A DNA stretch of 64,000 bases from Anaerolineae bacterium (GTDB lineage Bacteria; Chloroflexota; Anaerolineae; Fen-1058), in assembly GCA_046328575.1 (NCBI GenBank), contig JAXLWI010000003.1:52-64051 (forward strand), written 5' to 3'. The notes beneath the pieces were generated by a model. That model saw only the letters and a list, made by a program, of their open reading frames with translations, was not told where the DNA came from and made no database searches. The position numbers and the translations under genes were made by a program. Position 1 is the stretch's first letter. Every line of letters begins with the position of its first letter. This document shows, piece by piece, positions 7,656 to 32,753 of the stretch.

Positions 7656-7994
7656 GATGAGGGGCCTCGTTTCGATAGATTCTAAACTATGCCGATTGTA
7701 ACTCGATTGTAATATGCTGAATAGTCAAACCCCAATGGATTTGAACAAACCGAGTCACGTTCAAGCAAAACACCAAGATCTCCTACCATTACTTCCAGTC
7801 TGCTGAAGGCAGCCATGCCTTGATGCCTGTAATCATTGTAAGAAAACCGCAACCATTTTGAAAGGCTTGAGTTATGCATTTTACAAGCATTACGCATATA
7901 ATTACAACACAGAATCGGTCCTATCATACAACTAGAAGTCTGATTACACTTTCTAGTCGTGTGAGGAGGAAGATTCTGACGTTACGGAGATGAC
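7656..7994. promoter_or_regulatory. 340-bp AT-rich divergent intergenic region: promoters for psuG (-) and the kinase operon (+); TATAAT at 7896-7901; palindrome ctagaa-N13-ttctag at ~7932-7956; SD GGAGA at 7985-7989
   Basis: Marked AT-richness compared with flanking coding DNA, -10-like hexamer, inverted repeat directly upstream of the operon start. Confidence 0.4.
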
Positions 7995-12887: not shown

Positions 12888-13303
12888 GAGTGCTAATAAT
12901 AGACGAAGATCGGTATTGGCGTGAGATGGCCTGGATGTGCCTGCGACAGGTGGGGTACCGTGTAGACGCGGTTGCTGATTCTCTCCGGCTACAACAGTTT
13001 CTCGCAAAGTGTCCGGATATCATCTTATTGGGATTCTCAGTCATTCGGCCACATGACGAAGATCTAGTCGCCTGTGTACGCAGAACCTGCCCTCAGGCCA
13101 TGACGCTGGTGTTCTCGACATCTTGGCCGATTGCCCAGGCAATCGAGAGACGTTTGCTGCGTAGCGGAGTTGTTGATGTAATGGGGCGCTCTAGCTTCGA
13201 CTGTGATCTGGTTAGCCTTGTCGAGAATGAATATGCTAATCAAACTCAAGAGACGGCTTTGCTCTCAATCTATGGGCGATTCCGTCTACAGGGAGCGAAG
13301 TGA
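12884..13303 (+). CDS. Degenerate (pseudo-)receiver domain protein; phospho-acceptor Asp replaced (PDIILLGFSV)
   Basis: 139 aa with CheY-like fold signature (MRVLIIDEDRYW..., LVFSTS) but Gly at the phospho-acceptor Asp position and no conserved Lys. ATG overlaps the kinase stop. Confidence 0.55.
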   Translation: MRVLIIDEDRYWREMAWMCLRQVGYRVDAVADSLRLQQFLAKCPDIILLGFSVIRPHDEDLVACVRRTCPQAMTLVFSTSWPIAQAIERRLLRSGVVDVMGRSSFDCDLVSLVENEYANQTQETALLSIYGRFRLQGAK

Positions 13304-14910: not shown

Positions 14911-14921
14911 GAGGATGAACC

Positions 14922-16487
14922 ATGCGGGTTCTCATAGTAGATGACGAGCAAGAATGGCGCGAGAATCTTTGTGACACCGTTCGATTGGCTATTCACCAAA
15001 CCGTCGAGTGTGTGTTAGCCGCCAGTCTTGAAACGGCTCAAGCCGAACTCAAGCAGGCATCATTTGCGCTTATTCTTAGCGACCTTGGTATTCCGTCCCG
15101 TGATGGCATTTCTGACATATCCCCTGAAAACGGCATGTTGCTCTTGCGACTGATTCGAAGCAACGGGCTTAATCAAGGGGCCATTGGTATCGTCGTTACA
15201 TCTCGTGGAACGCCGACTCGCATGCGGGAAGTGCTTCTTAGGCTCAATTTCTCTGATTTCCTAGAAAAAGACAAATTCGATCAAAAAGAAGCTCAGGAAG
15301 TCATTCGCGCGGCACTTTTCACTGGAGCGTATCAACGTGTTGCCGCGTCACAAGCAACCAAATTTGATTTAACATTTGTGTTGACGAATACCCACTGCGT
15401 CTTCGCAGAGTTGTCTGGTCCGGAACGGTTTGGAGATGTAATTCCCGATCAGCCACTGGTCTTTGAGGCGGAGGAATCGATCCGCCGAGCAGACCGTATT
15501 CGCAAGCTCGTCACTGGTGATCTGCGCCGTGAGATGATTGATGAATGGCGGACTGATGCGCGTGAGACTGGAATGGGCCTCTATCGAAGTCTGTTCGGCG
15601 ACTTGTCATTTGGCGGCATTTTGCGGGCTGGCTCCGAAGGCCCGAAACAGTTTCGCGATCTCCGGCTGTGTTTTCGTGGCACACGCCGTTCGTTGGCTGT
15701 GCCCTTTGAACTCCTACATAATAATTCGGAATACCTGGCGTTAAATCATCCCCTTGTCCGCCAGGTCACCTCGGATCACGCGTCGGCTCGCAAGGCTGCC
15801 GCTTTTCGGACTTCACTTCTCAAACTGCACGAGTCGGATAAGACCCTCAACGTACTCCTGCTTGCTTCAAACGGTGGCGATGATCTGGAGGCGGCTGATC
15901 AGGAAGTGACCCAACTTAAGACCCGCATCGATGACCGTTTAGCCGAGACGGGGGTCCGTCGTAATGTATTAGCTATCTCTACGGCTGAGGCGACCTATAC
16001 ACGCGTCGAGTCAGTGCTGCGCGAACGAAAATGGCATGTCATTCACTATGCCGGGCATGGCCGTTGGAATCCGGATCTCCCGGAGGATAGTGCGTTAATC
16101 TTCATGCATAACGACAAGCCACGGTCGATGCCGGCCAGTGTGTTGCATGATCTTCTGAAAGATTCAGAGACTCTGCTGTTCTTCCTAAATGGGTGCTGGG
16201 GTGCGCGCACGGCCGAACATTCAGAGCAAGGCGACTTGTATGGGTTGATGGACAGCCTAGTACAGGCAGGCACGCCCATTGTTTTGGGCCACCGCTGGAG
16301 TGTATCAGACGGCGCCGCCCGTGATTTAGCGTTGACCTTTTACAATGACCTGCTCCAAAATTGGTCGGCTGAGGATGCGCTCCTCTTGGCGCGGAAAGCC
16401 GTCGTGAGCGAGTCCCCATTCCACGGAGACGACCCGGGTTGGGCCTCGCCTATTTTGGTGGTACAGACTGCATACACCCGCTGCTAA
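14922..16487 (+). CDS. Response regulator: receiver domain fused to a CHAT (caspase-like) peptidase domain
   Basis: Receiver motifs (VLIVDDEQEW, LILSDLGIP, VVTSRGT). C-terminal CHAT signature: VIHYAGHGRW (catalytic His) and LLFFLNGCWGART (catalytic Cys). Confidence 0.75.
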   Translation: MRVLIVDDEQEWRENLCDTVRLAIHQTVECVLAASLETAQAELKQASFALILSDLGIPSRDGISDISPENGMLLLRLIRSNGLNQGAIGIVVTSRGTPTRMREVLLRLNFSDFLEKDKFDQKEAQEVIRAALFTGAYQRVAASQATKFDLTFVLTNTHCVFAELSGPERFGDVIPDQPLVFEAEESIRRADRIRKLVTGDLRREMIDEWRTDARETGMGLYRSLFGDLSFGGILRAGSEGPKQFRDLRLCFRGTRRSLAVPFELLHNNSEYLALNHPLVRQVTSDHASARKAAAFRTSLLKLHESDKTLNVLLLASNGGDDLEAADQEVTQLKTRIDDRLAETGVRRNVLAISTAEATYTRVESVLRERKWHVIHYAGHGRWNPDLPEDSALIFMHNDKPRSMPASVLHDLLKDSETLLFFLNGCWGARTAEHSEQGDLYGLMDSLVQAGTPIVLGHRWSVSDGAARDLALTFYNDLLQNWSAEDALLLARKAVVSESPFHGDDPGWASPILVVQTAYTRC

Positions 16488-16513
16488 AGTCAAACCGTAG
16501 TCAGTATTGCCCA

Positions 16514-19500
16514 ATGAAAACTACCTCTATAGCATCTAACTCGAGGGCGCAAGGTCTTGCCGACGGCCTCAGCCTAATGAGCCAGATTGGTCAGGCGATC
16601 GTTGCCACGCTGGAGCCAGGTGAACTCATCGAGGAAATCTACCATCAGACCCACAAGGTCATCCCGGCCAACACCTATACCCTCTCTTTGCTCACCGATG
16701 ACCCAAATTGGATAGACATGTTTGCGGTCGATGAAGGACAAATTGTCCAGGAGCGGCGGCATATCGGCACCCTCACCCGATGGGTGGTCGAGCATCGCAC
16801 ACCGTTTGCTACGCCCGATGATCAAAGGCAACCTCCTCCGGTAGCGGTCACGCGAATCGAGACTGGTGTCGCTGATGAACCGCGGGCCTACATTCTCATC
16901 CCGATGGTTACCCACGATAAAGTCGTCGGCGTCATCTCGGTTCAAAGTTATGAGCCGGATGCTTTCAATGACGTGCATCTTGCCATGCTGTCGGCCATCG
17001 CCAGCCACTCGGCGATTGTGATAGAGAATAACCGTCTGCTGGCGCAGGCCCAGCATCGTGCTGCCGAACTGGCCAGTTTGGAGCGGATCGGCTACGAACT
17101 GGCGCGCCTGACGAACATCGAGGATGTGCTCAAGAAGATCATTACCGAGGCCAAAGACCTGCTCAACGCCGACTCCATGTCGATCTTTGCGTATGATGAG
17201 CGGCGCGGCAAGTTTCGACCCCCGACCTTTCTTCTCAAACCCGGAGCCGTCGGGCCGGTCGCACGTGAACGACCACCGCGCGAGGCTGGTCTGACGATCA
17301 GGATTGTTCGACATCACTGTGCCATTTTTACCGAAGTCAAGGCGGACGGTCAAGTGCAGTTTGCAGAGATCCCGATCGGTCAAAACTTCGAAGTGGCACA
17401 ACGGAAGACCTTTGAGTTTACCGACCAGGACACACTCGAATTCTTGCAGGCGCAGAATGTTCGCTCGTCCATCGGCTTTCCACTCAGCGCGGGTCGGGAT
17501 ATTGTGGGCGTGCTGTACGTCAACTACCAGCAGCCGCATGCCTTTGGCCAGGATGAGTTGCAGACCATTGGTCGATTGGCGCAATATGCGGGCACGGCGA
17601 TCCAACGGGCCAATGTGTATGGTGAGATCCGAGCGCTGCATCAAGCGGGCCACGCGCTGACCGGGCAAACCGAGATGCGGGCCGTGCTCAACAAACTCGT
17701 GGAATATGGGCACGAGGTGCTAGGGGCCGATCTGATTACGGTCTTCCCTTATCATGCCGGGGCGGACGAATTCGAACTGCCGCCGGTCGTGTCGGGCACG
17801 GCTTTGGCCCCCGACAATCTCTTACCGCCACAAATCAGGTCCGATGATACTGTACGCCGGATCGTGACCGAGACAAGCGCCCACTTCAGTCGGGATGCGC
17901 AGACGGATCCTTTGTTGGCAGGGTTCGATCCGGTCTTGCGGCAGTCCCGCTTCGTCACTCGCGAGCAGATTGCATCGGCGGCGGCGATTCCCTTGCGAAC
18001 CAATGGTGATGTCGTCGGCGCTCTGTTCTTCAATTATCGCACCCGGCAACGATTTGGTTCTCATCAGCGTACGCTGATCGAAACCTTTGCGGCGTATGCG
18101 GCGACGGCTATTCAACGGGCCCGATTGCTAGACCGCCGCCTCAAGGAGTTGCGTGCGCTGGCCGAGATTGATGCGGCGATCACATCGGGCAGTCTGCGAG
18201 ATGTGCTGAACAAAATCATTCAGTCAGCGTGTGAGATCGTGGGCGCCAAAGATGGCAACATTCTGTTGTTGCACGAAAGCGGGCAGTATCTGTATCTTGC
18301 TGCCCGTCAAGGTGAGGTGTGGCGCAGTGGCGCGCCGGAACGATTTGAGATTGGTAAGACCGGCGTGCAGGGCTGGGGCGCCGTGCACAAGAAACCAGCC
18401 CGGATTGGCAATGTGCATACCGAGGAACCGTGGAAGAATATTTACCTCGAAGTGATCCCCGGCATCCAATCGGAATTGAGTGTGCCGATCTTGGACGAGG
18501 AGAAGCAACTGGTTGGGATCATCATTTTGGAAAGTAAGGCGGCTCACGCCTTTTCGGCGGACGATGAGCGGTTGCTCGAGGCCTTGGCCGGGCAAGCCTA
18601 TATTGCCATTCGCAACCGGCGTCAATTCGAGGCTGAGCAGCGCGCGCTCCGCGAACTGCATCTGCTGAGAGAGATTGACAGCGCCGTCAGTTCGACACTC
18701 AACCATCAGGCGGTGCTGCAATTTATTGTAGACAAGAGCGATGTTCTGATTGATGCGCCTATCTTCACAGTGATGCTGTATGACGAACGGCGCGGCGATT
18801 TGTATCAAGCAGCGGGACGAGGCATAGTTGCAGATCACAAGTATCATCGTCAGAAGATGGGTACGGGGATCGTAGGGCAAGTGGCGTTGACACGCAGGAG
18901 CGTGCGGGTCGGTGATGTCACTACACTTGCGCAGAATGAAGGCTTTCTACCAGATATGCTCGATACTCGTTCAGAGCTAGCGGTTCCCATCCTGCAAGGT
19001 GACCAATTTGTTGGCGTGCTGAACGTCGAAAGCCCTGAAGTTGACGCGTTCAATGCGGACGATGAACGACTGTTGAAAAGTCTGGGATCGCTGGTCGCTG
19101 TCGCGATCCAAAACAGCCGCCTCTATGAACAGGAACAGCGCGCCCGCCAGGTGATTGATATCTTGCGCGAAGTCGACCAGGCGATTGCCTTCTTAGCAGT
19201 GACTCAACCGGAGAACCTGGCAGACGAATTGAGCCCCATACTGCAAATCCTCCTCAATCGTGGCTTGGATGCGGTGCACGCGCCGGCTGGCAATATTATG
19301 CTGTATGATGATGCCACCGATGATTTATACATGGCGGTCGAGCGTGGTGTGCTGCCCGAACACCGCACCGCCCGCCAGAAGATCGGCGAGGGCGTCGTGG
19401 GCCGCGTCGCAATTGATAAACGAACGTTGCGTATAGATGATGTGAATGTGCCGCCGTGGGATACAGTCTATCAAGGCTACATCTCCGACGTTCGATCTGA

Positions 19501-21430
19501 ACTCGCCGTGCCACTGGTATACAAAGACCGCCTGGTCGGCGTCCTCAACGCCGAAAGCCCACTGGTAAGCGCGTTCGGACCTGAAGATGAGGACCTCTTC
19601 GAAGCCCTGGCCGGGCAAGCCGTGATTGCCTATTTGAACGCCGAACGGTATCAGGCCTTGCAAACCCTTCGCGAAGTCAACCAATTGTTGGCCTCAGGCC
19701 ATGACTCCAACGACGTGCTGAAGTTGATCCTTATCTATACCTGTACCAACTTCCGAGTGGAGTGGGGGAACTTGCGGCTATTTGACCATACAGGACAGCC
19801 GATCCTCGATTACGTCCTGGTTACCTCGGCGCTGGGCATTGACCCGGAAGTACGGGTGATTGAAATTCGACGCGCAACTCATGAAAAATGGCTAGAGAAG
19901 GGCATCGTCAGCTGGGTCGCACAACAACGTGAACTGTTCCGCTCGCAGGGCAATGTGCAGGCAGATCCGCGCTTTCAGAGCTATCCTGGCCTCGAGATTC
20001 GTTCGGAAATGGCTGCGCCGCTGTTGGTTGGCTCAGATCTAGTTGGCGTGTTGAACCTGGAAAGCCAACGTCTAAATGCATTTGATGCAAACGATGAAGA
20101 CCGCATGCGCGACTTCAGTGCGCAGGCCGCACTGGCCGTGCAGAATGCGCGTAATTTGGCCGAGTTGCAAGAGAGCGAGGGGCGCTTTTCAGCCCTCTAT
20201 GAAGTAGGGAGTGAGATTATCACGGCTCCTTTGGATGAACTCAAGATCCTTGAGATTGTTCTGAGTGCCGGACTGAACCGCACGGGGGGCTTCCACGCAA
20301 TTGCCTGGCAACCCGATCGAGAGGGCAAACAATTGGAGGCGCGTCTGGTGCGGGGCGAGCAGCAAGCCGAGCCGCATGAGCCTATTGCACGCGACAGCAC
20401 ACTCGTTAACAGCGTGGCATGGCAAAAGCGGTCAGCGATCCTGGTCGACGATGTGACCGTGCCACCGGAAGGGACAAAGCATCGGCCTGGACATACGCGG
20501 ACCGGCTCAATGCTGGTGGTGCCGATGATGGCAGGGGAAGAGTATTTCGGTAACCTGGATTTTCGGCACAAAGACCCGCACGGATTCAAACAGGAAGAGA
20601 TTCGATTACTCAATGGCTTGGCCGCGCAGGCCGCCAATTCGATACGCCGTATCCGCCGTGAGAATGAGTTGAAGTCAATCTTACAGAAACAGTTTAACGA
20701 ATTACAAGATGCTTATGATGAATTAAGGATCGCTGACCGGCAAAAGTTGGAGTTTCTCGCGATTGCCTCTCACGAGCTGCGCAAACCATTAACTCCACTT
20801 CGTGTTGTCTTAGAACGGGCCGTTTTGGGTGAATACTCGCCATTAGAATTGCTGGATAAAATGCGGCTCGCCCTTGATCGTACCCAGCATCTAACAGGTA
20901 TCGTCGATCAACTTCTGAATATCGCTAGGATTGAAGCTGGCAAGATTAAGCCTGAGTTTGGAACTCATAGTGTAGTTGACTTGATAAAAAGATCGTTAAC
21001 AAGTATTCAGCATGTTGCCGAGAATAAAGGCATTCAGCTAATATCTGAATTGCCAACCGAATCGATCACCGCCGAAATCGATCAAGGTAAAATTAGCCAA
21101 GTGCTTGATAACCTCCTAGACAATGCTCTCAAACATACCGAGGCAGGCGGTTGTATTACAGTTTCATGTATTCACCTCAAGCCTGAAGACGACGTCATCC
21201 TCTGCGTCCGTGACACTGGAGAAGGAATACCAGAGAAGGAATACAAGCGAATCTTTGACTGGTTTTATCAGGTCGATCCTTCCCTGACGCGCTCCATTGA
21301 AGGTTTGGGCGTTGGGTTGTATGTCGCTAAAAAGTATATCGATATGCATGGCGGTCAGATCACGGTGAAAAGCGAGGTCGGCAAAGGCAGCACCTTCACT
21401 GTCTTGTTGCCGGCACGTCAGAAGGCATAA
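16514..21430 (+). CDS. Sensor histidine kinase, paralog of 7995-12887 with eight GAF domains but a classical HisKA (LEFLAIASHELRKPLTPL) + HATPase_c core
   Basis: Residues ~1-1340 are ~85-90% identical to the first kinase, then diverge into a PhoR/EnvZ-type core. Start set at ATG 16514 (MKTTSIAS...) by alignment with the paralog; the ORF-track start at 16439 overlaps the previous gene. Confidence 0.85.
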   Translation: MKTTSIASNSRAQGLADGLSLMSQIGQAIVATLEPGELIEEIYHQTHKVIPANTYTLSLLTDDPNWIDMFAVDEGQIVQERRHIGTLTRWVVEHRTPFATPDDQRQPPPVAVTRIETGVADEPRAYILIPMVTHDKVVGVISVQSYEPDAFNDVHLAMLSAIASHSAIVIENNRLLAQAQHRAAELASLERIGYELARLTNIEDVLKKIITEAKDLLNADSMSIFAYDERRGKFRPPTFLLKPGAVGPVARERPPREAGLTIRIVRHHCAIFTEVKADGQVQFAEIPIGQNFEVAQRKTFEFTDQDTLEFLQAQNVRSSIGFPLSAGRDIVGVLYVNYQQPHAFGQDELQTIGRLAQYAGTAIQRANVYGEIRALHQAGHALTGQTEMRAVLNKLVEYGHEVLGADLITVFPYHAGADEFELPPVVSGTALAPDNLLPPQIRSDDTVRRIVTETSAHFSRDAQTDPLLAGFDPVLRQSRFVTREQIASAAAIPLRTNGDVVGALFFNYRTRQRFGSHQRTLIETFAAYAATAIQRARLLDRRLKELRALAEIDAAITSGSLRDVLNKIIQSACEIVGAKDGNILLLHESGQYLYLAARQGEVWRSGAPERFEIGKTGVQGWGAVHKKPARIGNVHTEEPWKNIYLEVIPGIQSELSVPILDEEKQLVGIIILESKAAHAFSADDERLLEALAGQAYIAIRNRRQFEAEQRALRELHLLREIDSAVSSTLNHQAVLQFIVDKSDVLIDAPIFTVMLYDERRGDLYQAAGRGIVADHKYHRQKMGTGIVGQVALTRRSVRVGDVTTLAQNEGFLPDMLDTRSELAVPILQGDQFVGVLNVESPEVDAFNADDERLLKSLGSLVAVAIQNSRLYEQEQRARQVIDILREVDQAIAFLAVTQPENLADELSPILQILLNRGLDAVHAPAGNIMLYDDATDDLYMAVERGVLPEHRTARQKIGEGVVGRVAIDKRTLRIDDVNVPPWDTVYQGYISDVRSELAVPLVYKDRLVGVLNAESPLVSAFGPEDEDLFEALAGQAVIAYLNAERYQALQTLREVNQLLASGHDSNDVLKLILIYTCTNFRVEWGNLRLFDHTGQPILDYVLVTSALGIDPEVRVIEIRRATHEKWLEKGIVSWVAQQRELFRSQGNVQADPRFQSYPGLEIRSEMAAPLLVGSDLVGVLNLESQRLNAFDANDEDRMRDFSAQAALAVQNARNLAELQESEGRFSALYEVGSEIITAPLDELKILEIVLSAGLNRTGGFHAIAWQPDREGKQLEARLVRGEQQAEPHEPIARDSTLVNSVAWQKRSAILVDDVTVPPEGTKHRPGHTRTGSMLVVPMMAGEEYFGNLDFRHKDPHGFKQEEIRLLNGLAAQAANSIRRIRRENELKSILQKQFNELQDAYDELRIADRQKLEFLAIASHELRKPLTPLRVVLERAVLGEYSPLELLDKMRLALDRTQHLTGIVDQLLNIARIEAGKIKPEFGTHSVVDLIKRSLTSIQHVAENKGIQLISELPTESITAEIDQGKISQVLDNLLDNALKHTEAGGCITVSCIHLKPEDDVILCVRDTGEGIPEKEYKRIFDWFYQVDPSLTRSIEGLGVGLYVAKKYIDMHGGQITVKSEVGKGSTFTVLLPARQKA

Positions 21431-21448
21431 ACAAGCTGGAGGCTTCAC

Positions 21449-22963
21449 TTGTCGCAAAATCTCCGGATCCTCATCATCGATGATGATCTCATTGCAACTC
21501 AAGAACTCAAAGAAGCCCTTGAATATGAAGGGTATTCAGTCAGCATAGCATCCGGTGGAGTGGATGGTGTGCGCCTTGCAGAAGAGCTGCTTCCGAGCCT
21601 CATCATCTTGGATGTGATGATGCCGGGAATGGACGGCTTTGAAGTCTGCCGCCTGCTTCAAGCAGGGGCTGAAACGGCGAAAATTCCGATTCTCATGTTG
21701 ACCGCTCGCACTGAAGTACAGGACAGGATCAGCGGGCGCGACCGGGGTGCAATCGTTTATATGACCAAGCCGTACTCGATAAGCGAGCTGCGCGCTCAGG
21801 TCAGGGTTCTGCTCCATCGTTTCCCTAACCCACACCGCTCAGAGTTATCGATCACATACAATAGTCAGCAGGTATTCTCCTTCCAGCTACTGGGTGTTAC
21901 AACGTATGCCAGTGACGGGCGGCATATTCCCCTCGCTCTGGTGGATCTCAATCAAGAACTCGTAGACGTGGGAGATCGAATCAGTGCCTTCCAGAAACTC
22001 CTGGCAGATGCTCCTTCTGACGAACAAAGTGCGCAGTACCATGAAAAACGTGATGTCTGGCGACGGCAAGTTAAGAAGCGCGGCAAAGAACTCCACGATC
22101 AATTCGTCGCCGCCAACTCGGATCTGGTCGAGCAGTTTGGCTTGGCGAAACAAGTATTACGATCAGATGACTTACTTGTCCGCTTTATTGGGCCGCGAGC
22201 GCATCTTGGCCTGCCGTGGGAGCTGCTCCATGACGGCGAGCACGTGCCGTTGGTAATCATGCATCCATCCTGTCGGACAGTAACAAGTATTCATTCTCGT
22301 CACAAGCACGATTCATGGAGTGCCTTCCTCGACAGACTAGATTCCGAGCCGCTGCGTGTTCTGTTGCTTGCTTCGAGTTCAGGCACACCGCTTGAAGAAA
22401 TTCAATATTTAGGTCAATGGTTTAAGCAAGCATTTCGAGATAGGGTAGTTGTCGAACCTGATCCGCCGATAGTTTTGTCCCGACAACAGGCTGAAATCTT
22501 GCTGCGCAAAAAGTCGTTCCACCTCATTCACTACGCCGGTCATAGCAGCTTTGACGGGGTGCGCCCAGATCAAAGCGGGTTACGATTTGGCTCAAAGAGG
22601 GACGATCTGATCACGGCTGGGTGTCTATATGATCTGCTGCTTGATTCGCCGGCCCGGTTGGTTTTCTTGAATTCGTGCGCAGGCGCGCAAGTTGGTGATC
22701 TTGAACGACTCAAAGACAATGATTTTCTGGGCCTAATTGATGTAGCGGTCGTGGCCGGCGTGCCCGCTGTCTTGGGTTTTCGCTGGAATGTGACGAATGC
22801 CGCATCGTTCGAGTTCGCCAAACAGTTCTATGGTCACCTGCTTGAAACTCGGTCTTTGGAGCAAGCGACCTGGCTGACTCGCAAGAGCATCTATCGTGCT
22901 AACGGATGGGACGAAACCTGGCTCTCTCCTATCTTGGTCGTCCAAAATCCTCAATCCTTCTAA
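21449..22963 (+). CDS. Response regulator: receiver domain fused to a CHAT (caspase-like) peptidase domain (second copy)
   Basis: TTG start with SD GCTGGAGG. Canonical receiver (ILIIDDD, LIILDVMMPGMDG, LMLTART, YMTKPY). CHAT motifs HLIHYAGHSSF (His) and LVFLNSCAGAQ (Cys). Confidence 0.75.
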   Translation: MSQNLRILIIDDDLIATQELKEALEYEGYSVSIASGGVDGVRLAEELLPSLIILDVMMPGMDGFEVCRLLQAGAETAKIPILMLTARTEVQDRISGRDRGAIVYMTKPYSISELRAQVRVLLHRFPNPHRSELSITYNSQQVFSFQLLGVTTYASDGRHIPLALVDLNQELVDVGDRISAFQKLLADAPSDEQSAQYHEKRDVWRRQVKKRGKELHDQFVAANSDLVEQFGLAKQVLRSDDLLVRFIGPRAHLGLPWELLHDGEHVPLVIMHPSCRTVTSIHSRHKHDSWSAFLDRLDSEPLRVLLLASSSGTPLEEIQYLGQWFKQAFRDRVVVEPDPPIVLSRQQAEILLRKKSFHLIHYAGHSSFDGVRPDQSGLRFGSKRDDLITAGCLYDLLLDSPARLVFLNSCAGAQVGDLERLKDNDFLGLIDVAVVAGVPAVLGFRWNVTNAASFEFAKQFYGHLLETRSLEQATWLTRKSIYRANGWDETWLSPILVVQNPQSF

Positions 22964-22974
22964 GGAGAACTAAC

Positions 22975-23331
22975 ATGTCTGACCAGCAACCTTCCGATAG
23001 TATCATCGTTTACACCATGCCAGACGTAAGCGAAAAGACCAATGATTATGATCAGATGCGCGGTGATTATGATCAAGAGAGAAAGTGGTTTGGTTCTCCA
23101 AAGCCAACTACAGTCTCATCCGTGAAACTTCAACAGCAGATCAATGTCTTTCTAGTCCAAATGGGCGAAGCGTTGAAAGAAACACCGGCTGAAGTAGGCG
23201 GATTCAAATTAAATGAAATCGAAATCTCGGCCGGAATCACGGCCGGCTTGGAGATTGCGCTGATTGGGTTGGGCAGCGCCAAAGGTGAACTCACGGGGGG
23301 ATTACGCTTTACGTTTAAGCGTTCAGAATGA
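22975..23331 (+). CDS. Small (118 aa) protein resembling the Trypco2 / CU044_2847-type domain that co-occurs with trypsin/CHAT peptidases in conflict systems
   Basis: Strong SD AAGGAGA 6 nt before ATG 22975. C-terminal half (FKLNEIEISAGITAGLEIALIGLGSAKGELTGGLRFTFKR) matches the alternating beta-strand pattern I recall for Trypco2; from memory, not a search. Stop overlaps the next start (ATGA). Confidence 0.4.
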   Translation: MSDQQPSDSIIVYTMPDVSEKTNDYDQMRGDYDQERKWFGSPKPTTVSSVKLQQQINVFLVQMGEALKETPAEVGGFKLNEIEISAGITAGLEIALIGLGSAKGELTGGLRFTFKRSE

Positions 23332-24743
23332 AGTCTGAAGTCCCACTCACCGCCTCGTATCGATACGCCGAGGTAACCCAAATCTTTCGCCGGGTGAAAG
23401 CCGGCGATTCATGCATGGTCGTCGGCGTGAGCGGCATGGCCAAATCGAATCTGTTTCGACATATCGCTAGACCTGAGATAAGAGAAATATTCTTGGGCTT
23501 GACCTGGCAAAACTACGGGTTTGCGTCGACGGATGTGCATGCCCTCGCGAATCCCAATGAGGCGGGATTATATGAATCTATCTTGCGTAATCTGATACGA
23601 GACACCAAGGAATTAGGCCTAGCAGGCAACGACCTACTCACTTCTGTACAGACTCAGTTTGTGCAACTAGAACGCTTGACGACTGACCGTGAGTTGCCTC
23701 AAGCGCAACGCGCTTTTTTGACGGCGATGGATCTATTCGCGACTAACAGGCAACTACATTTCGTCATACTGCTTGATCAATTCGATGAGATTTTTCCACA
23801 TTTGTCCGCCCGCTGCTTTACCACCTTACGGCATTTGCGAGATCAGCTAAAGTATCGGCTGTCATATATAGTCTTTACACGTGAAGATCTGTCTCGCCGA
23901 GGTCACAATGCAGGAGTTGAAGAATTCACTGAACTACTCACGCCCGCAGTCCTCTGGCTAGGGACCTACTCGCGAGAAGACGCCCAAACTGAAATACGGC
24001 GTGTAGCGGCACGATATGGGATCAAGCCCGATTTTCGCGTAAGTGATCGCTTGATCGATCTCACAGATGGTCATTCCGGGTTGCTGAAGGCAGCTTATCA
24101 GGCTGTAATCGATGGGCGTGCAAACATAGAACTGAATGACAGCGCCATCAGTCTACTAAAGGATTCCAATGTTCAGACGGAATGCATGAAACTCTGGAGT
24201 AGCCTCACCTCAAAAGAGCAGACAACGTTAGTCAGAGCTGCGCTCGGGGGTGAGGTCGGTTCTCCAGTTAACGATACTATCGAGTATCTTGAGCGCAAGT
24301 CTCTACTAACAAAATCCGGTGGTCACTATAAGATTTTCTGCTCATTGTTCGCTGACTTTCTCGTTCAGCAAGCCAGTGGTTCATTTCAAAATCTCACTCC
24401 AGCAGCGGTAAAAACTCACCAAGGTACGCCCAGGAATTTGAAACTCCGTATTGAGACTGAAACGCGGACCGCCTGGCTTGGCTATCAGGAACTCAAGCTA
24501 ACTCCCAATGAGTACAAACTGCTGGACTTGTTGTATCACCGCCGAGGAGCCGTTTGTAGTCGAGACGAGATCGTCCGGCAGGTTTACTCTGTTCGAGTGG
24601 TCGATCCTGCTACGGGTATTGACGATAGTCGTGTCGATACGTTGGTAAGCCGGCTACGAGGAAAGATAAAGGGCGCGGGAGGCGATCCGCACATTGTTAC
24701 GACAGTGTGGGGACAAGGCTTCAAATTAGAAAACGACGAGTAA
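23328..24743 (+). CDS. P-loop NTPase (AAA/STAND-like) fused to a C-terminal OmpR/PhoB-type winged-helix DNA-binding domain
   Basis: Walker A-like VVGVSGMAKSN, Walker B HFVILLDQFDE. C-terminal ~100 aa with trans_reg_C pattern (LTPNEYKLLDLL...VDTLVSRLRGKI...IVTTVWGQGFKL). Confidence 0.65.
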   Translation: MKSEVPLTASYRYAEVTQIFRRVKAGDSCMVVGVSGMAKSNLFRHIARPEIREIFLGLTWQNYGFASTDVHALANPNEAGLYESILRNLIRDTKELGLAGNDLLTSVQTQFVQLERLTTDRELPQAQRAFLTAMDLFATNRQLHFVILLDQFDEIFPHLSARCFTTLRHLRDQLKYRLSYIVFTREDLSRRGHNAGVEEFTELLTPAVLWLGTYSREDAQTEIRRVAARYGIKPDFRVSDRLIDLTDGHSGLLKAAYQAVIDGRANIELNDSAISLLKDSNVQTECMKLWSSLTSKEQTTLVRAALGGEVGSPVNDTIEYLERKSLLTKSGGHYKIFCSLFADFLVQQASGSFQNLTPAAVKTHQGTPRNLKLRIETETRTAWLGYQELKLTPNEYKLLDLLYHRRGAVCSRDEIVRQVYSVRVVDPATGIDDSRVDTLVSRLRGKIKGAGGDPHIVTTVWGQGFKLENDE

Positions 24744-24764
24744 CGCTAGTTTCGCGTTGCCGAA

Positions 24765-25628
24765 TCAATCTAGTTGACTTCGTGGTCGTTTGCGAGGGGA
24801 AGTAGATGGGGGAGTTGGTGCCGTTCCCTCAGCTGGCAACGATGATGGGAAGGATGTTGCAGCCGGACGGGCAATCTTACGTGGTATAGACTGGCTGTCT
24901 TTATCGGGTACAACTATATCCGTTAGGTCAGGCATATTGATGTATTGCTTTCCACCTGCCATAGCTTGCATTGCCTCAATAGCTTCTGTACGCATCGCCT
25001 GTGTTAATTCATAGGGCTCATATTGGCTGAGATCTTGAACATTGACGCCCCGCTGTACCACCGCCTCAAATCGGCTTTGTAGCGCTAGGGGAACCTTAAC
25101 TCGGAGCACCATACCAAAGAGCGGCTTTAATGCTAGTGGCTGAAGACGGCTGGTCAAAACGGCCAAGAATTTCTGCTCCAGCGGCACAAACACTTCTCCT
25201 CGACAAACCTGTTCGGCGTAGAATTCTGGCATTGCCGCCTGCAGCGCTCGCTGAGCGTTGTCTGTCACAATTGCCCGGCGAACAAGCTGCGGCCACTTGA
25301 CGAAGAGAGCTATCTTTTCATGTGGCACTGAGAATGGCTCAAAAACGTAAGCCAGCGCGATTGATAGATCGAGTTGTAGGGCATCGCGAGTTTGGACACT
25401 CGGAATAGGGACTGAGATGAAATCTGGCGCTACGCTGATGACAGAGCGTACTGTCTGAGTAAACGGATTAATCCGGAAAAAACCAGGCCCCATTACTTTG
25501 TCATACTGTTCTAGACGATAAATTACGGCGAGCTCATAGTCACCGACCCAACGTATACCAAAGGGACGTCCAAGGCGAAGTAACAACCGATAAACCATCG
25601 GGGGCCGAGTGTCATGTGAGTCCTTCAT
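24765..25628 (-). CDS. SPFH/band-7-like domain protein with low-complexity Pro/Ser/Thr-rich C-terminus
   Basis: YRLEQYDKVMGPGFFRINPFTQTVRSVISVAPDFISVPIPSVQTRDALQLDLSIALAYV resembles the prohibitin-homology core. Start placed at ATG 25628 (MKDSHD) after CTAGGAGGG. Confidence 0.45.
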   Translation of the reverse strand: MKDSHDTRPPMVYRLLLRLGRPFGIRWVGDYELAVIYRLEQYDKVMGPGFFRINPFTQTVRSVISVAPDFISVPIPSVQTRDALQLDLSIALAYVFEPFSVPHEKIALFVKWPQLVRRAIVTDNAQRALQAAMPEFYAEQVCRGEVFVPLEQKFLAVLTSRLQPLALKPLFGMVLRVKVPLALQSRFEAVVQRGVNVQDLSQYEPYELTQAMRTEAIEAMQAMAGGKQYINMPDLTDIVVPDKDSQSIPRKIARPAATSFPSSLPAEGTAPTPPSTSPRKRPRSQLD

Positions 25629-25682
25629 AGAATACCCTCCTAGCATACCAAAAGAATGTCTTTGTGCTCGTTAAGCCCTGAC

Positions 25683-27053
25683 TCATTCTTTCTGCAAACA
25701 AATAATTCGATAAGCGCCATTGGGTTCGAAGATAATATACTGTTGTTGCGGCGAATCAATCTTGCGCTTGATCTCCATCATATAGCTGTCGAGACGGTGA
25801 TCGGGCGGACCAGGGAAGCGCCGTTGCTTAACTTCACCTGCTAGCATTTCACCGATCAACTCTTGACGTGTGATAGATTGTCCGCAACGCTTGTATAAAT
25901 AGGCCAGAAGTCGATATTCGACAGCGTCTAGGCTCTTAACGGTCTGATCTGCCAATCGGACCCCTTGACGACTAGGAATCAATTCAATCGCCGGTTGGTT
26001 ATCCTGCGACCTATCCAGAATATATCTAGCAAAAACTGGCGAAAAGATCTCGTAGCCTTCCTTGGATCTGGGTCGTATTAGGCCCTTTCGCTCAAGCCTC
26101 CGCGTAGCCACACCTTGCAGCCGTCCTTGATCGGCTAAGATTTGTAGACAGGCTATTTCCTCCTCTTCTAAGCTCTTCCAAATCTCGTCACATTCTGACT
26201 GTATCCGAGGGTGTTCACGAAGTTTTTCAAGAATCTCGGAAGACAATAAGTCCGTGGTTTCTTTACGACCAGTGACTTGTAGAATTGCTTTTATTAAACC
26301 AGCATGGCGACCTGAAATCTTTAGAAGGCGCTGTCGTTCCACCTCACTAAGAGAAAAATTCCACCGGGCAACTAGCCGGTCTATCATGAAGTTTGCATCT
26401 ACTTCTCGATAGGGGCCAATTGCGATGGTCGTGGGAGTAACAATCTCGTAGAAATCCTTGCGTTCATCTTCATCACCCAAGAACGCCAATTCGTGACGGG
26501 TCACCGTCACGTACATCAGATGGAATTTGTGATTATCTCGCAAGACGCGTAGGCCATTCAAGACCTGAGCCGGCAAATTCTGAACAACATGGTCAAAATC
26601 GTCAAAGATCACAAAAATCTGAGACACGTCGGCTTTCAATATAGTCGTGATCACATCTTCCAAGGCTTGCCCCATCATTTCGGATGAGGTACTTTCAGCA
26701 GCTTGTCTCCACATTTCCTCTATCTTCGGTCGCAAGGCCATCGTTTTAGGGCCAGCCTGCTGAGTAGCCTGCGGTAAAGCCTGTAATATTAAACTATGCA
26801 TTGCCAGAGCTGAGTACTTAGATAGTTTTGTACAAGGCACTAGGATACTGAGGGTATCTTGTGCGCGATCGCCTAGATGATGCGCCCGTACGTCGTAGCG
26901 CTCCAAGTGGCGTGCTACATTTGACTTGCCCGAACTGCCAACGCCAACTAAGGAACATGATTCACCGCTCGTCAAGGCCGTCAATACTGGCTTAATGACT
27001 TCACTTCGAAATTCAACTGAAAGTGGAAGATCCAGCATGTTGCCCCCAATCAT
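25683..27053 (-). CDS. P-loop NTPase + C-terminal OmpR-type winged helix (paralog of 23328-24743)
   Basis: Walker A LVGVGSSGKSN, Walker B IFVIFDDFDH. C-terminal LDAVEYRLLAYLYKRCGQSITRQELIGEM... winged helix. Same architecture as the + strand paralog. Confidence 0.6.
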   Translation of the reverse strand: MIGGNMLDLPLSVEFRSEVIKPVLTALTSGESCSLVGVGSSGKSNVARHLERYDVRAHHLGDRAQDTLSILVPCTKLSKYSALAMHSLILQALPQATQQAGPKTMALRPKIEEMWRQAAESTSSEMMGQALEDVITTILKADVSQIFVIFDDFDHVVQNLPAQVLNGLRVLRDNHKFHLMYVTVTRHELAFLGDEDERKDFYEIVTPTTIAIGPYREVDANFMIDRLVARWNFSLSEVERQRLLKISGRHAGLIKAILQVTGRKETTDLLSSEILEKLREHPRIQSECDEIWKSLEEEEIACLQILADQGRLQGVATRRLERKGLIRPRSKEGYEIFSPVFARYILDRSQDNQPAIELIPSRQGVRLADQTVKSLDAVEYRLLAYLYKRCGQSITRQELIGEMLAGEVKQRRFPGPPDHRLDSYMMEIKRKIDSPQQQYIIFEPNGAYRIICLQKE

Positions 27054-27311: not shown

Positions 27312-28391
27312 CTAGGTAGCACCGCATTGTCGAATAAACTCTTCGAAAACCGTCGCGAAGACTCCATCAGGGCGTCCACGCACCAAGCCCTTATGTCGCA
27401 GCTGCAACAGATCCGCATAATTGACATCCTCGTGTCGATTGTAGACTAGTGCGACTAAAGTTGCCTGTTCACTGCTTTCTAGATCATTCCACATATCGTA
27501 ACAAAGATTGTGTAACGTCGGTTCATCGTGCAGGATGCACGAAACGCTAGACCACGGCAGGTCTCGCTGGTTGAGACATGCCAGTGCAGCAACCAAGAGC
27601 TTGGCATGCCCGCCTGTCACTCGATAGAGATCTGCCTGTTGATCGTCGTCGAGATGCACGCGCCCGTCGACCGTTCGACGCTCGACCAGCGCGCGCGCAT
27701 CACGCTCAGAGTACGGCGGCACCCAGAACTGAACGCGAAATATCTCTGTGAATTTTTCGCTCAACGGCTCAGACGCACCCTGCCGCGCGGCTAACGCCAC
27801 GAGAGAGCTACGCGTACCGGTAACATATGTGAGCGAGTGCTTGTGATTGTCGCGCAGCCGGCGTAACGCTCGCAACGTGGCGGTGGGGAGTGTCACGAGC
27901 AATTGATCGAAGTCGTCGAAGATCAACGCTATGCGTGATTGCCCCGCGTGCCCCACCCCCCCCAACATGTCGGAAAGCATCACCTCCGCTTCAATGTCGT
28001 TTTTGCAGGCCGCAAGCTGCGTTGCATAGTTTTGAGCCAGCCTGCGATCGGCGATTGACCATTGCAACGCCCGTAGCTGAAGATAAACGCTGTCGGCGAT
28101 AACACGGCATAAAACAAGCGTGGTGTCGAGCGTGTCGTACCGCGGATCAGCCCCGAGATAAACGGGCAAGAGGGTTGTAGTGGCCATCTCGCCAAGGTGG
28201 TAGGCAATGGCGCGGCGTTCACATATGAAACGCAATAGGTTTGAGAGGCCCACTCCGCGGATGCCGATGATTTGGTTTGCATCGTAGCCATGATACATCG
28301 AAGTGAAAAGAGGGGCAACGATCTCGCGCCGGAATGACAGCGCCAATTCGCGCGACAGAACAGACGACCGGGCTTGACTGTCGGTGTCCAT
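27312..28391 (-). CDS. NTPase-like paralog with a degenerate P-loop and no winged helix
   Basis: Collinear with the two NTPases above (IALIFDDFDQ Walker B retained), but Walker A reads IGIRGVGLSNLL (Lys lost). Confidence 0.5.
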   Translation of the reverse strand: MDTDSQARSSVLSRELALSFRREIVAPLFTSMYHGYDANQIIGIRGVGLSNLLRFICERRAIAYHLGEMATTTLLPVYLGADPRYDTLDTTLVLCRVIADSVYLQLRALQWSIADRRLAQNYATQLAACKNDIEAEVMLSDMLGGVGHAGQSRIALIFDDFDQLLVTLPTATLRALRRLRDNHKHSLTYVTGTRSSLVALAARQGASEPLSEKFTEIFRVQFWVPPYSERDARALVERRTVDGRVHLDDDQQADLYRVTGGHAKLLVAALACLNQRDLPWSSVSCILHDEPTLHNLCYDMWNDLESSEQATLVALVYNRHEDVNYADLLQLRHKGLVRGRPDGVFATVFEEFIRQCGAT

Positions 28392-29523: not shown

Positions 29524-31374
29524 TCATCGCTGGCTAATCTGGTTGCCAGGTCCCATCATCTTTCGCAACTTCTCCAGCAACTTCTCCATCTCCGCGCGCG
29601 AGTTGTCACTGGGCGCTTCGCGGAGTTGTCGTTCGAGCATACGCGCCATCGTATCCATGAAGACGTATGCCAGCGGATGGACCACTTCGCCTGATTCGGC
29701 GGTCTGATTGACGGTGCGGACGGCTTGCGTCAACGCCTGCACCAGCTCGGCTTTGGCTTCGGCCTGCGCGAATTGGATTTGCTGAATCGCTTCTGCTTCG
29801 CCACGTGACTGCGTGATGGCCGATTCCTTTTCCCACACCACGCCCCAACTCTTCTGGCGTTGCTCGGTCACTTCCAATGGCACGGTAATGTTGCCAAAGC
29901 CGCTGTCGAGCAAGTCGATACCGCGTTTGGCTAAGGCCTGCTTGCCGTTGGTGTCGAGCAGTTGCGCGATCTCTTTGCGCGGATTTTGGGCTGAATCGTC
30001 GGGCGCAAACAGCTGATCGAGCAGGCGCTTGGACATGAAATCGCCCACTTCGCCGGCGGCAACTTTGAACGCTGCATCACTCCACTTAATCGGCGGGTTC
30101 GCTTTGGGACTATGGTGAACTTCATATACGGCGGCGCGCAGCGCCTCGGGTGAGGCCGGAAAACTGCCCACGGCTTTGGCCGGATTTGGACCGCGAAAAA
30201 AGGCGCGTAGCACGGTCGAGAAACCGGGTTTGGGCGGCGGTGGTGGTGTTTCACCCGGCATCTTCCGCGCGAATTTGAAGATCGCCCCGACACTGACTCG
30301 GATCGGCACACCATCTTTGGTCAAGACGGCAGTGTCTTCACTGTTGCTCTGAGCGCGCAAATCCAACACGGCCCGCGGATATTCAAACGCTTGGAGTTCA
30401 TATTCGCCAGGGCCGTACATACCCGCGTAGCTGCCACCATGTTCGGTGATCACTGCCGTGCCCGATCGCACATCGAGTATGCCCGGCCCGCCGATGCGCA
30501 TCGCCACTTCATTCTTAGGCGCCTCGACCGCTTTCTTAAGTGCCGCTAGGCCTTTCGAAGGAGGCGGTGGTTCTGCGCCTTCGATCGCGCCGCTCTTGGC
30601 GACGATGACGGTGCCGTTGCCGATGCCAAACGTGGTCGCGAGCACAAACTCGATCGCGTGGCTCAGCGATTGCAAGCTGTACATCTGCGCGACAAATCGC
30701 CCGGCGCGAAAGACAGCAAACGCCACGCCCAAGATCGCCGGCGCGACGAACCAAATATCGAACGGGAACGTCGTGGTTGTAGCCGTGGCCGGTGCCGGCC
30801 CAACGTAGGTCTGAATGCTGAAGTTAACCAACGGGCCAAAGGGCTGACCATTAGGCGCATGCAACCGCCAGGCATTCGTATACTGTCCCAGCCGATTGGG
30901 AGCCGACATGCCAATCGTGGGTCCAAATATGCCACCCGGTGGAATCTCTAGCGGGCCGAGATCCGTTCGGACAACATAGGTTGGCGCGGTCACTGTGGAA
31001 GTGACTTCGGCCAATGGCCCTTCCTCATGTCGGAACGTCACCGTTTCCGTCCACACACAGGTGCCGGCATTAACCATGTATATCCAGTCGGCATCAAAAG
31101 ACTGACCAGCTGGTTTGAGTCGAATCGCTTGTGCCTCGTCGGGATTGCCGACGATCTGCGCGGCGTACGTGCAGCCTATCTCTGGATCGCGCTGAGTGAT
31201 AGTCGGCGGGGGCATCCGCCGCATGAGCCACGAGCCCAGCACACCCATCAAGAGGACGGCGGCCGCGACGAAGACGCTCCGCCCGAGTGCGCGCAGCTGT
31301 TCGCTATGCAAGCGGCGGTTGAGCGAACGCCAGAAGGCTTGATTTAGTTCACTGAGACTGGGTCGATGATCCAC
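29524..31374 (-). CDS. Membrane protein with N-terminal TM, extracytoplasmic domain and SPFH/band-7 (flotillin/HflK-like) domain with C-terminal coiled coil
   Basis: TM (VFVAAAVLLMGVLGSWL). SPFH-like core (...LTKDGVPIRVSVGAIFKF...). C-terminal helical region (AEAIQQIQFAQAEAKAELVQAL). Confidence 0.55.
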   Translation of the reverse strand: MDHRPSLSELNQAFWRSLNRRLHSEQLRALGRSVFVAAAVLLMGVLGSWLMRRMPPPTITQRDPEIGCTYAAQIVGNPDEAQAIRLKPAGQSFDADWIYMVNAGTCVWTETVTFRHEEGPLAEVTSTVTAPTYVVRTDLGPLEIPPGGIFGPTIGMSAPNRLGQYTNAWRLHAPNGQPFGPLVNFSIQTYVGPAPATATTTTFPFDIWFVAPAILGVAFAVFRAGRFVAQMYSLQSLSHAIEFVLATTFGIGNGTVIVAKSGAIEGAEPPPPSKGLAALKKAVEAPKNEVAMRIGGPGILDVRSGTAVITEHGGSYAGMYGPGEYELQAFEYPRAVLDLRAQSNSEDTAVLTKDGVPIRVSVGAIFKFARKMPGETPPPPPKPGFSTVLRAFFRGPNPAKAVGSFPASPEALRAAVYEVHHSPKANPPIKWSDAAFKVAAGEVGDFMSKRLLDQLFAPDDSAQNPRKEIAQLLDTNGKQALAKRGIDLLDSGFGNITVPLEVTEQRQKSWGVVWEKESAITQSRGEAEAIQQIQFAQAEAKAELVQALTQAVRTVNQTAESGEVVHPLAYVFMDTMARMLERQLREAPSDNSRAEMEKLLEKLRKMMGPGNQISQR

Positions 31375-32653: not shown

Positions 32654-32753
32654 GTAAGGAAGCCTACCTAAGCATAAGGTAATATAGCATAAACTCTCGA
32701 CAAAGACCAACGCCCGATAGACGCTGAGCCTGACTTGGCAGTATAATGCAGCC

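Follow-up and report, generated by a model that had tools for sequence, protein, structure and literature searches.

A CHAT protease-Pepco gene pair within a predicted two-component signalling system of an Anaerolineae bacterium

The window analysed here, meaning the whole stretch of 64,000 nucleotides (nt) taken from the forward strand of contig JAXLWI010000003.1 (positions 52-64,051) of an Anaerolineae bacterium (assembly GCA_046328575.1), contains three plus-strand open reading frames (ORFs), situated exactly where an initial annotation made from the sequence alone had placed them, at 21449-22963, 22975-23331 and 23328-24743. They encode a CHAT-type protease with a receiver domain (REC-CHAT2), a small protein of the Pepco family, and a P-loop NTPase (NTPase-A) which ends in a DNA-binding winged helix-turn-helix (wHTH) domain. 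This triad is a fragment of a larger conserved system of approximately 20 kb (7995-28391). The explanation that is judged moderately likely, taken as a whole, is that the triad lies at the distal end of a conserved signalling-to-cell-death system, chromosomally encoded in a filamentous Anaerolineae bacterium, in which a histidine kinase would signal through a receiver to a CHAT protease, and the protease would cleave Pepco to produce a membrane pore.

Domain calls were made with Pfam, for which the curated cutoffs are 27 bits for Pepco, 27.1 for nSTAND1, 24 for CHAT and 26.2 for Trans_reg_C. The small protein, which has 118 amino acids and begins with the ATG at 22975, matches the Pepco family (PF24393) over model positions 3-112 of 112 with 50.1 bits (E = 4.4e-13), and all eight of its eight close homologs also carry a precomputed PF24393 assignment. 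It had initially been taken for a Trypco2-type protein, but it has no match to Trypco2 (PF19631) in Pfam even at E <= 10 and none in NCBIfam, CU044_2847 included, at E <= 0.1, and its neighbour is a CHAT cysteine protease rather than the trypsin-like peptidase expected of Trypco2; a relative at locus L023 matches Trypco1 only below threshold (0.093). The Trypco2 assignment thus falls, whereas the conserved synteny of the three genes, on which the initial annotation had likewise been made to depend, is found. The signs of expression described for this ORF are also present, in that a strong Shine-Dalgarno sequence (AAGGAG, 22962-22967) lies 7 nt upstream of its start and its TGA stop overlaps the ATG of NTPase-A as ATGA (23328-23331). 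Searched in full with HMMER, a set of 1.84 billion representatives contains 324 members of the Pepco family at E <= 1e-3. A 2025 preprint by Evans et al. (10.1101/2025.11.14.688446) groups Pepco, Trypco1 and Trypco2 together, and the relation of the Pfam Pepco family to Trypco1/2 goes back to a single sentence of that work.

The sole Pepco protein that has been studied experimentally, SsPepco of Streptomyces subrutilus, is encoded beside the trypsin-like Avs4 and pre-assembles as SDS-resistant beta-barrels of 9-10 subunits, from which the neighbouring protease trims a charged, proline-rich C-terminal tail of 20 residues by cutting after a conserved Ile (Ile97). The trimmed protein is lethal to E. 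coli, its toxicity requires the neighbouring protease, and Evans et al. conclude that SsPepco is a protease-activated, membrane-permeabilising pore (10.1101/2025.11.14.688446). Because in this precedent Pepco is the toxin and the protease is what activates it, the window Pepco is probably an executioner rather than an adaptor, with the CHAT protease as its activator, and the roles first proposed for the pair, namely a peptidase effector assisted by a small adaptor, are probably inverted.

The architecture of the window Pepco differs from that of SsPepco at both ends. An acidic, variable N-terminal extension (residues 1-47), poorly conserved among close relatives, precedes a predicted helix (49-68) and a predicted amphipathic beta-hairpin (approximately 78-116), and the protein stops two residues after a conserved FKR, with no C-terminal tail and hence without the SsPepco-type tail that carries the conserved Ile cut site. 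Close relatives end 1-7 residues past the highly conserved GGL(K/R)F(V/T)FKR strand, and in the 150 top-ranking representatives of the family the N-terminal and C-terminal extensions have medians of 41 and 3.5 residues, respectively, a C-terminal tail of at least 10 residues being present in 21 of the 150. In the AlphaFold2 (AF2) model of the monomer, which is of moderate confidence, residues 49-68 are helical and residues 81-96 and 106-115 form strands. The hydrophobic moment of the beta type rises at 78-86 and at 100-108, as expected for amphipathic periodicity. Within the N-terminal extension, R29 and G30 form a pair that does not vary in the close subfamily and that many remoter members share. 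Clan CD peptidases are usually strict for the residue at P1, and several of them, such as metacaspases and separase, favour Arg at that position. With 47 residues ahead of the helix and only two beyond FKR, the licensing cut is predicted to fall either after R29, between R29 and G30, or after R116 as a short C-terminal trim.

The description of the upstream gene product as a CHAT-type peptidase with an added receiver domain holds on both counts. REC-CHAT2 has 504 amino acids, begins with a TTG that is preceded by GGAGG 6 nt upstream, and matches both Response_reg (7.9e-24) and CHAT (6.4e-23). Its start lies 18 nt past the stop of a histidine kinase gene (HK2), 11 nt separate REC-CHAT2 from Pepco, and the genes of Pepco and NTPase-A overlap by 4 nt. 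A second protease of the same architecture, REC-CHAT1, is encoded in the same system (CHAT 5.7e-29, Response_reg 1.3e-08; motifs HYAGH at 375-379 and LNGC at 422-425); the CHAT scores of the two proteases are 82 and 102 bits against the cutoff of 24, they share 35% identity across the protease domain, and their receivers come from different lineages. In both, the receiver retains its acidic pocket together with the phospho-acceptor Asp and the conserved Lys, and the protease retains its His-Cys dyad; an alignment of 24 REC-CHAT homologs shows no variation at the corresponding residues D55, K107, H365 and C410. Proteins of approximately 500 amino acids with the REC-CHAT architecture are widespread (731 matches), and in each of the five distinct contexts examined (the window and L026-L029) the gene immediately preceding REC-CHAT is of the histidine-kinase type, although in L026 that gene is cut at the contig end and in L027 it is a fusion of receiver, TCAD9 and HATPase domains. 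Because a kinase-type gene precedes it in every one of the five contexts, REC-CHAT is a two-component output.

NTPase-A was correctly recognized at the outset as a P-loop NTPase with a C-terminal winged helix of the OmpR type. Its 471 amino acids match nSTAND1 (PF20703) with 39.9 bits over model positions 19-226 of 379 only, as well as AAA_16, and, at the C terminus, Trans_reg_C (2e-16), and PF20703 is assigned in precomputed form to most of its homologs. Walker A (GVSGMAKS, 33-40) and Walker B (LLDQFDE, 148-154) are followed by GHSGLLK (248-254) and an internal winged helix, and in an alignment of 30 homologs K39 and S40 of Walker A (GxxxxAKS), D150 and D153 of Walker B, and H249 and G251 of the motif GGH(P/S)GLLK are invariant. 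The AF2 model is confident (mean pLDDT 85.5), residues 195-350 forming helical and winged-helix modules, and in fold comparison it is matched best by NB-ARC and CED-4, while a sequence search of the PDB with the NTPase profile retrieves the wHTH domain only. NTPase-A is STAND-like. The position of its wHTH, which had been called unusual, is not: in OmpR/PhoB regulators this domain is canonically C-terminal, and the odd feature is that an NTPase takes the place of the receiver. No effector-associated domain or ligand-sensing repeat arm of the TPR, WD40 or LRR type was found in the approximately 470 residues. NTPase-A is unlikely to be a sensor that drives the CHAT protease, because it lacks a sensor domain, carries a DNA-binding domain, and belongs to a family mostly found without CHAT and Pepco, and because the CHAT proteins have a receiver input of their own and are encoded right after a histidine kinase.

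Public records P0001, P0009 and P0188 are 100% identical to window proteins, with the qualification that P0009 starts NTPase-A 29 codons later (at Met30, giving 442 amino acids; start region 23328-23414). The 471-residue start is preferred because R12 and G26 are invariant in the 30 homologs and because of the ATGA overlap. A separate observation concerns the two proteins that flank Pepco: the REC-CHAT2 receiver (21449-21868) and the NTPase-A wHTH (24411-24743) both have the cyanobacterial response regulator RpaB as their best NCBIfam match, at model positions 1-140 and 125-227 of 229, respectively, and so look like one response regulator split between two proteins, although this joint match may reflect generic OmpR-family resemblance alone.

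As the initial annotation required, further Anaerolineae assemblies show the same gene order of REC-CHAT, small ORF and NTPase-wHTH, with small proteins 68-78% identical to that of the window. Six distinct loci with Pepco were found (the window, L001/L005, L004, L022, L023 and L027), and in every one of them the Pepco gene comes immediately after a CHAT gene. The identity of Pepco to the window protein is 75% in L001/L005, 68% in L004, 78% in L022 and 38% in L023, and Pepco follows only a subset of REC-CHAT genes. It adjoins NTPase-wHTH in four of the six; L023 and L027 hold CHAT-Pepco pairs without this NTPase. In L023 the gene after Pepco encodes a 1256-residue WD40/HEAT/TPR protein, and L027, where both CHAT types are present along with Pepco, has a CHAT protein of 36% identity and a different P-loop NTPase nearby. 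The metagenome scan with the Pepco alignment yielded only four loci; two of these, L024 and L025, were rejected as spurious matches within HlyD-type genes.

When genomes were scanned with the NTPase-wHTH alignment, 17 loci were recovered, which belong to Chloroflexota, Acidobacteriota and a single metagenome-assembled genome labelled 'Heliobacteriaceae'. CHAT and Pepco are present in one of them (L005). In nine (L006-L010, L014, L015, L017 and L018) the gene immediately before NTPase-wHTH encodes a TCAD9 kinase-like protein, with a receiver detectable in most and a GAF histidine kinase upstream in most, and neither CHAT nor Pepco was detected in any of these nine. Three loci (L011, L012 and L016) have NTPase-wHTH with a short NTPase, two (L020 and L021) have an NTPase-B-like gene paired with SPFH/Band 7, and two (L013 and L019) are truncated. 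The triad is thus not one evolutionary unit, because Pepco always follows CHAT while nine of the 17 NTPase-wHTH genes follow TCAD9 without CHAT or Pepco: the stable partner of NTPase-wHTH is the kinase cassette, and CHAT-Pepco behaves as a separate two-gene module which fills a variable 'effector' slot. In two Acidobacteriota loci the TCAD9 protein carries a C-terminal addition, a TIR domain in L007 (7770-9953) and a STAND-like NTPase in L018 (1797-5138), and the TCAD9 proteins of L006 and L014 have further C-terminal extensions. A variable effector slot on a constant core is the pattern expected for conflict and cell-death systems.

The components of the larger system, with their coordinates in the window, are as follows.

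7995-12887, plus strand: HK1, a soluble histidine kinase with eight GAF domains and HATPase_c and a non-canonical phospho-acceptor region (Pfam)
12884-13303, plus strand: a stand-alone pseudo-receiver, receiver-like but without the phospho-acceptor Asp (sequence reading)
13300-14910, plus strand: REC-TCAD9, a receiver fused to an APH/Kdo-like kinase domain (Pfam and motifs)
14922-16487, plus strand: REC-CHAT1, the first receiver-caspase-like protease (Pfam CHAT and Response_reg)
16514-21430, plus strand: HK2, the second histidine kinase with eight GAF domains, with HisKA and HATPase_c (Pfam)
21449-22963, plus strand: REC-CHAT2, with an OmpR-family-type receiver (residues 1-125) and CHAT (residues approximately 241-504)
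22975-23331, plus strand: the small Pepco-family protein, a predicted pro-toxin (Pfam Pepco)
23328-24743, plus strand: NTPase-A, with an nSTAND1-type module (residues 1-350) and a C-terminal OmpR-type wHTH (residues approximately 372-471)
24765-25646, minus strand: an SPFH/Band 7 protein (Pfam Band_7, 1.3e-07), convergent with NTPase-A
25683-27053, minus strand: NTPase-B, a paralog of NTPase-A with a canonical Walker A and a divergent C-terminal wHTH
27312-28391, minus strand: NTPase-C, a shorter paralog without the wHTH (phmmer relationships)

The two kinases are 74% identical overall (BLASTP), with the first approximately 1400 residues aligned closely, but the likeness is lost in the transmitter, so that near-identical sensor arrays are joined to unrelated transmitter modules. 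HK2, which properly begins with the ATG at 16514, corresponding to residue 26 of the ORF as listed, has a canonical HisKA in addition to its eight GAF domains and HATPase_c, whereas HK1 has eight GAF stretches and HATPase_c and no Pfam match to HisKA. No transmembrane segment is predicted in HK1, and none that is convincing was found among the components from HK1 through NTPase-C. This arrangement looks like one signal routed to two receiver lineages. The stop of HK1 overlaps the start of the pseudo-receiver, which is translationally coupled between HK1 and REC-TCAD9, reads IILLG where receivers carry hhhhD and so has Gly at the acceptor position, has no Pfam match, and is kept in L004 (3e-44). 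REC-TCAD9 matches TCAD9 (1.4e-39) and Response_reg (1.2e-13) and carries the kinase motifs HGDLNANN and IDF, and receiver motifs corresponding to the phospho-acceptor Asp and Lys of REC-CHAT2 are also found in REC-TCAD9 and REC-CHAT1. The makeup of a two-component system is thus present, in that kinases with HATPase_c adjoin receivers with an intact Asp and Lys, and phosphotransfer between them is predicted on this basis.

On the far side of NTPase-A, the SPFH gene holds the same position in L001-L005. NTPase-B is 24% identical to NTPase-A (alignment A1), has the Walker A sequence GVGSSGKS, and matches AAA_22 and AAA_16, while its Trans_reg_C match (3.5e-05, 24.2 bits) falls under the cutoff of 26.2. 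In NTPase-C the Walker A sequence is GVGLS, with Lys replaced by Leu in the window copy only; the orthologs in L001 and L004 keep GKS. The possibility that NTPase-C is a conserved inactive 'iSTAND' was accordingly ruled out, since the Walker A lysine is lost in this genome alone. Two membrane proteins are encoded just past the NTPase paralogs (29524-31374 and 31349-32800), one with an N_BRCA1_IG Ig-like domain and the other with SPFH/Band 7 and N-terminal transmembrane segments, which brings the SPFH proteins around the putative pore-toxin locus to two when that at 24765-25646 is counted.

The G+C content dips to 0.47-0.51 across approximately 12-28 kb, compared with 0.55-0.60 in the flanking DNA, and the locus is flanked by housekeeping genes (psuG-like, RadA and TrmA-like). 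A scan for promoters and terminators from 7000 to 26900 gave no convincing operon boundary, terminator-like sites being rarer than in shuffled sequences. Upstream of HK1, at the intergenic position 7693-7712, the repeat CGATTGTAA occurs twice in direct orientation with 11-nt spacing. Such spacing is typical for binding sites of the OmpR family, and the repeat is a candidate site for the wHTH domains of the NTPases. The sequence GATTGTAA has three matches in the whole window against 1.3 expected, which is not significant.

The layout of the window can be compared with that of L004, which has one kinase and one CHAT gene. L004 was considered as an ancestral, un-duplicated layout, but between its REC-CHAT1 and Pepco genes there is a frameshifted remnant (6690-6940) of the last approximately 80 codons of a CHAT2-type gene, and this pseudogene remnant rules that interpretation out: L004 is a deletion derivative in which HK2 and most of CHAT2 were lost while Pepco and the NTPase were kept. 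The two-kinase, two-protease layout is therefore ancestral within the clade.

In the proposed mechanism, HK1 and HK2 would be cytoplasmic kinases that sense the same intracellular cue through their GAF arrays. The usual partners of OmpR-family receivers are HisKA kinases, and HK2, with its canonical HisKA, would phosphorylate the OmpR-type receiver of REC-CHAT2, while HK1 would in parallel serve the other receiver lineage, that of the REC-TCAD9 kinase and REC-CHAT1. Caspases are activated by proximity; by the same principle the phosphorylated receivers would dimerise, two CHAT domains would be brought together, and the protease would be switched on. REC-CHAT2 would then clip the Pepco pro-protein encoded directly downstream, and the processed Pepco would act as a small beta-barrel pore in the membrane, killing or arresting the cell, with abortive defence, or programmed death or differentiation within the filament, as the possible outcome. 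NTPase-A, translationally coupled to Pepco, is envisaged as an NTP-switched DNA-binding regulator that most likely controls how the locus is transcribed, or is itself targeted by the TCAD9 kinase, instead of sensing for the protease. The locus may have arisen when an older cassette of GAF histidine kinase, REC-TCAD9 kinase and NTPase-wHTH received the two-gene CHAT-Pepco module as an insertion. A more detailed version of this mechanism is offered only tentatively, and is thought doubtful as a complete account: a phosphorelay-driven 'caspase circuit', in which two eight-GAF kinases with different transmitters would feed two REC-CHAT proteases and a receiver-kinase, licensing a Pepco pore toxin that has an N-terminal propeptide and an Arg-Gly site, while the STAND-like protein with its OmpR-type wHTH would couple the circuit to transcription.

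Several observations weigh against the cell-death mechanism. The confidence of the AF2 model of the Pepco monomer is moderate, with a mean pLDDT of only 65. The SsPepco-type C-terminal tail is absent here, so that activation of this Pepco may differ or may not occur, and the experimental precedent pairs Pepco with the trypsin-like Avs4 and not with a CHAT protease. Many REC-CHAT genes adjoin histidine kinases without any Pepco, and REC-CHAT therefore acts on other substrates too. In L004, Pepco and NTPase-A were retained although HK2 and most of CHAT2 were lost, from which it follows that CHAT2 is not strictly required for retention of Pepco. Finally, an anti-phage role is only putative. No PADLOC model matches Pepco or the NTPases, and the locus is therefore not a catalogued defence system; PADLOC gives only weak cross-matches of the receiver and CHAT proteins to SduA, PD-T4-6 and BovA (E from 1e-3 to 1e-8, on the receiver regions). 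The flanks are housekeeping genes, and a search of phage and plasmid collections found no match to Pepco.

Some of these same observations would be explained if the REC-CHAT proteases were ordinary two-component outputs that cut regulatory substrates during stress or filament development, without killing the cell, and Pepco were a membrane-associated modulator or scaffold; the substrates could include the adjacent NTPase-wHTH transcription factors. Cyanobacterial CHAT proteases of the HetF type, which carry out regulatory cleavage, provide a parallel, and REC-CHAT1 does match the NCBIfam HetF model (NF045509), but weakly (2.1e-09) and far below its cutoff. The wide distribution of kinase and REC-CHAT pairs lacking Pepco (among the 731 REC-CHAT matches) is consistent with such regulatory proteolysis, as are the housekeeping surroundings with neither a PADLOC nor a mobile-element signal, and the three DNA-binding/NTPase paralogs together with the SPFH genes suggest a membrane-linked regulatory circuit. 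The strict adjacency of CHAT and Pepco in six of six loci argues, however, for Pepco as a dedicated partner, its core (GGLKFVFKR and the amphipathic hairpin) is strongly conserved, toxin activity has been demonstrated within its family, and in a related locus the equivalent slot is filled by TIR, a typical death effector. Purely regulatory proteolysis is considered unlikely.

The model put forward by the initial annotation, in which the NTPase is an NTP-dependent sensor or switch, the small protein a Trypco2-like adaptor, and CHAT the terminal effector that degrades cellular proteins, is improbable. In its favour are the nSTAND1 score above cutoff and the NB-ARC and CED-4 fold matches, the translational coupling of Pepco to the NTPase and their adjacency in four of six Pepco loci, and the presence in the same operon of TCAD9, a domain named from ternary conflict systems. 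It is at odds with the absence of any Trypco2 or CU044_2847 match and with the toxin activity of the one Pepco studied; its NTPase would be a sensor with neither an effector-associated nor a repeat sensor domain, ending instead in a DNA-binding wHTH, and would control a protease that carries its own receiver input. Moreover, CHAT and Pepco go undetected in nine of the 17 NTPase-wHTH loci, the CHAT-Pepco pairs of L023 and L027 do without this NTPase, and vWA, MoxR and VMAP were not found in the locus. That the three genes are unrelated neighbours juxtaposed by chance in a single metagenome-assembled genome, for which nothing specific speaks, is refuted by the conserved synteny and is exceedingly improbable: the same gene order occurs in independent assemblies with Pepco 68-78% identical, the broader set of genes is found again where CHAT identity is 36%, and the start and stop codons overlap or lie 11-18 nt apart.

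Two further genes of the window may be recorded in their own right. A separate STAND protein of 1050 amino acids (57640-60792) has NB-ARC/AAA_22, TPR and a C-terminal BTAD, and a 443-residue protein (268-1599) has an N-terminal match to FAIM1, the Fas apoptotic inhibitory molecule (E = 8.8e-10).

The significance of the predicted pathway lies in its input. Toxins licensed by proteases are coming to be seen as central to prokaryotic immunity and cell death, and the protease inputs described so far are fused or paired sensors (Avs and other STAND proteins) or CRISPR signals; if the cell-death mechanism is correct, a histidine-kinase phosphorelay as input would connect a caspase-like death switch with the largest family of bacterial signalling proteins. 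The tentative caspase circuit, if real, would be the first proteolytic cell-death pathway under two-component control, and the window Pepco would represent a second mode of Pepco activation. The family survey indicates a large Pepco subgroup with an N-terminal extension and no C-terminal tail, to which the published activation through a C-terminal tail therefore cannot apply. The locus also defines a conserved cassette of GAF histidine kinase, REC-TCAD9 and STAND-wHTH in Chloroflexota and Acidobacteriota. The pairing of a protease with Pepco, proteolytic licensing, and the occurrence of nSTAND1, TCAD9 and receivers in conflict systems are already known; in the literature searched no description was found of a histidine kinase to REC-CHAT input to a Pepco module, of the N-extended, tail-less Pepco subtype as a mechanistic class, or of the cassette.

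Among known systems, the closest point of reference for the CHAT-Pepco module is SsPepco-SsAvs4. Both have a non-enzymatic Pepco of approximately 117-118 residues encoded beside a protease gene, with a helix and then an amphipathic beta-hairpin predicted, and the window module is predicted to share the logic of a latent toxin licensed by site-specific proteolysis, with interchangeable sensors. They differ in the protease, which is a trypsin-like serine enzyme in the one and a CHAT cysteine enzyme in the other; in the input, an Avs/STAND pattern-recognition sensor fused to the protease as opposed to a kinase-fed phospho-receiver; in Pepco itself, which in the window has a 47-residue N-terminal extension and neither C-terminal tail nor Ile site; and in gene order, Pepco lying downstream of the protease gene in the window and upstream of it in S. 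subrutilus.

The initial annotation was right to place the triad in the general territory of conflict systems, given its CHAT domain, a small protein of a kind that co-occurs with peptidases, nSTAND1, and TCAD9 nearby. Kaur et al. (2020; PMC7159879) described ternary systems of vWA, MoxR and VMAP with Trypco1/2-trypsin pairs and TCAD domains, and found no histidine kinases among the receiver-bearing vWA-associated effectors. The vocabulary held in common with those systems comprises a peptidase with a small partner, TCAD9, receivers and STAND-type NTPases, and they too are preponderant in multicellular or filamentous bacteria and have a variable effector slot, which in a locus related to that of the window holds TIR. 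Unlike them, the window system has no Trypco1/2 match and no vWA, MoxR or VMAP gene, none of the three being found when every large ORF in the locus and in the flanking DNA was scanned with Pfam, and its NTPase carries a DNA-binding domain rather than effector-associated or sensor domains. Giant GAF histidine kinases are integral to it, whereas the receivers reported by Kaur et al. come without kinases, so that the locus is a counter-example to their remark on that point.

NTPase-A is also minimal beside the STAND-family transcription regulators, consisting of an NTPase and a C-terminal OmpR-type wHTH in approximately 470 residues without sensor repeats, whereas in MalT the C-terminal HTH is of the LuxR type and a large sensor arm is present, and regulators of the AfsR/SARP type have the OmpR-type wHTH at the N terminus, with BTAD and TPR in addition. 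The CRISPR-linked protease switches, Craspase/Csx30 and CalpL-CalpT-CalpS, resemble the predicted module in that a signal-activated caspase-like or Lon-type protease cuts a neighbouring small or regulatory protein, with growth arrest or a transcriptional response as the result; they are activated by RNA or a cyclic oligonucleotide, whereas the signal in the window is predicted to be phosphorylation by a kinase, and the substrate belongs to a different family, Pepco.

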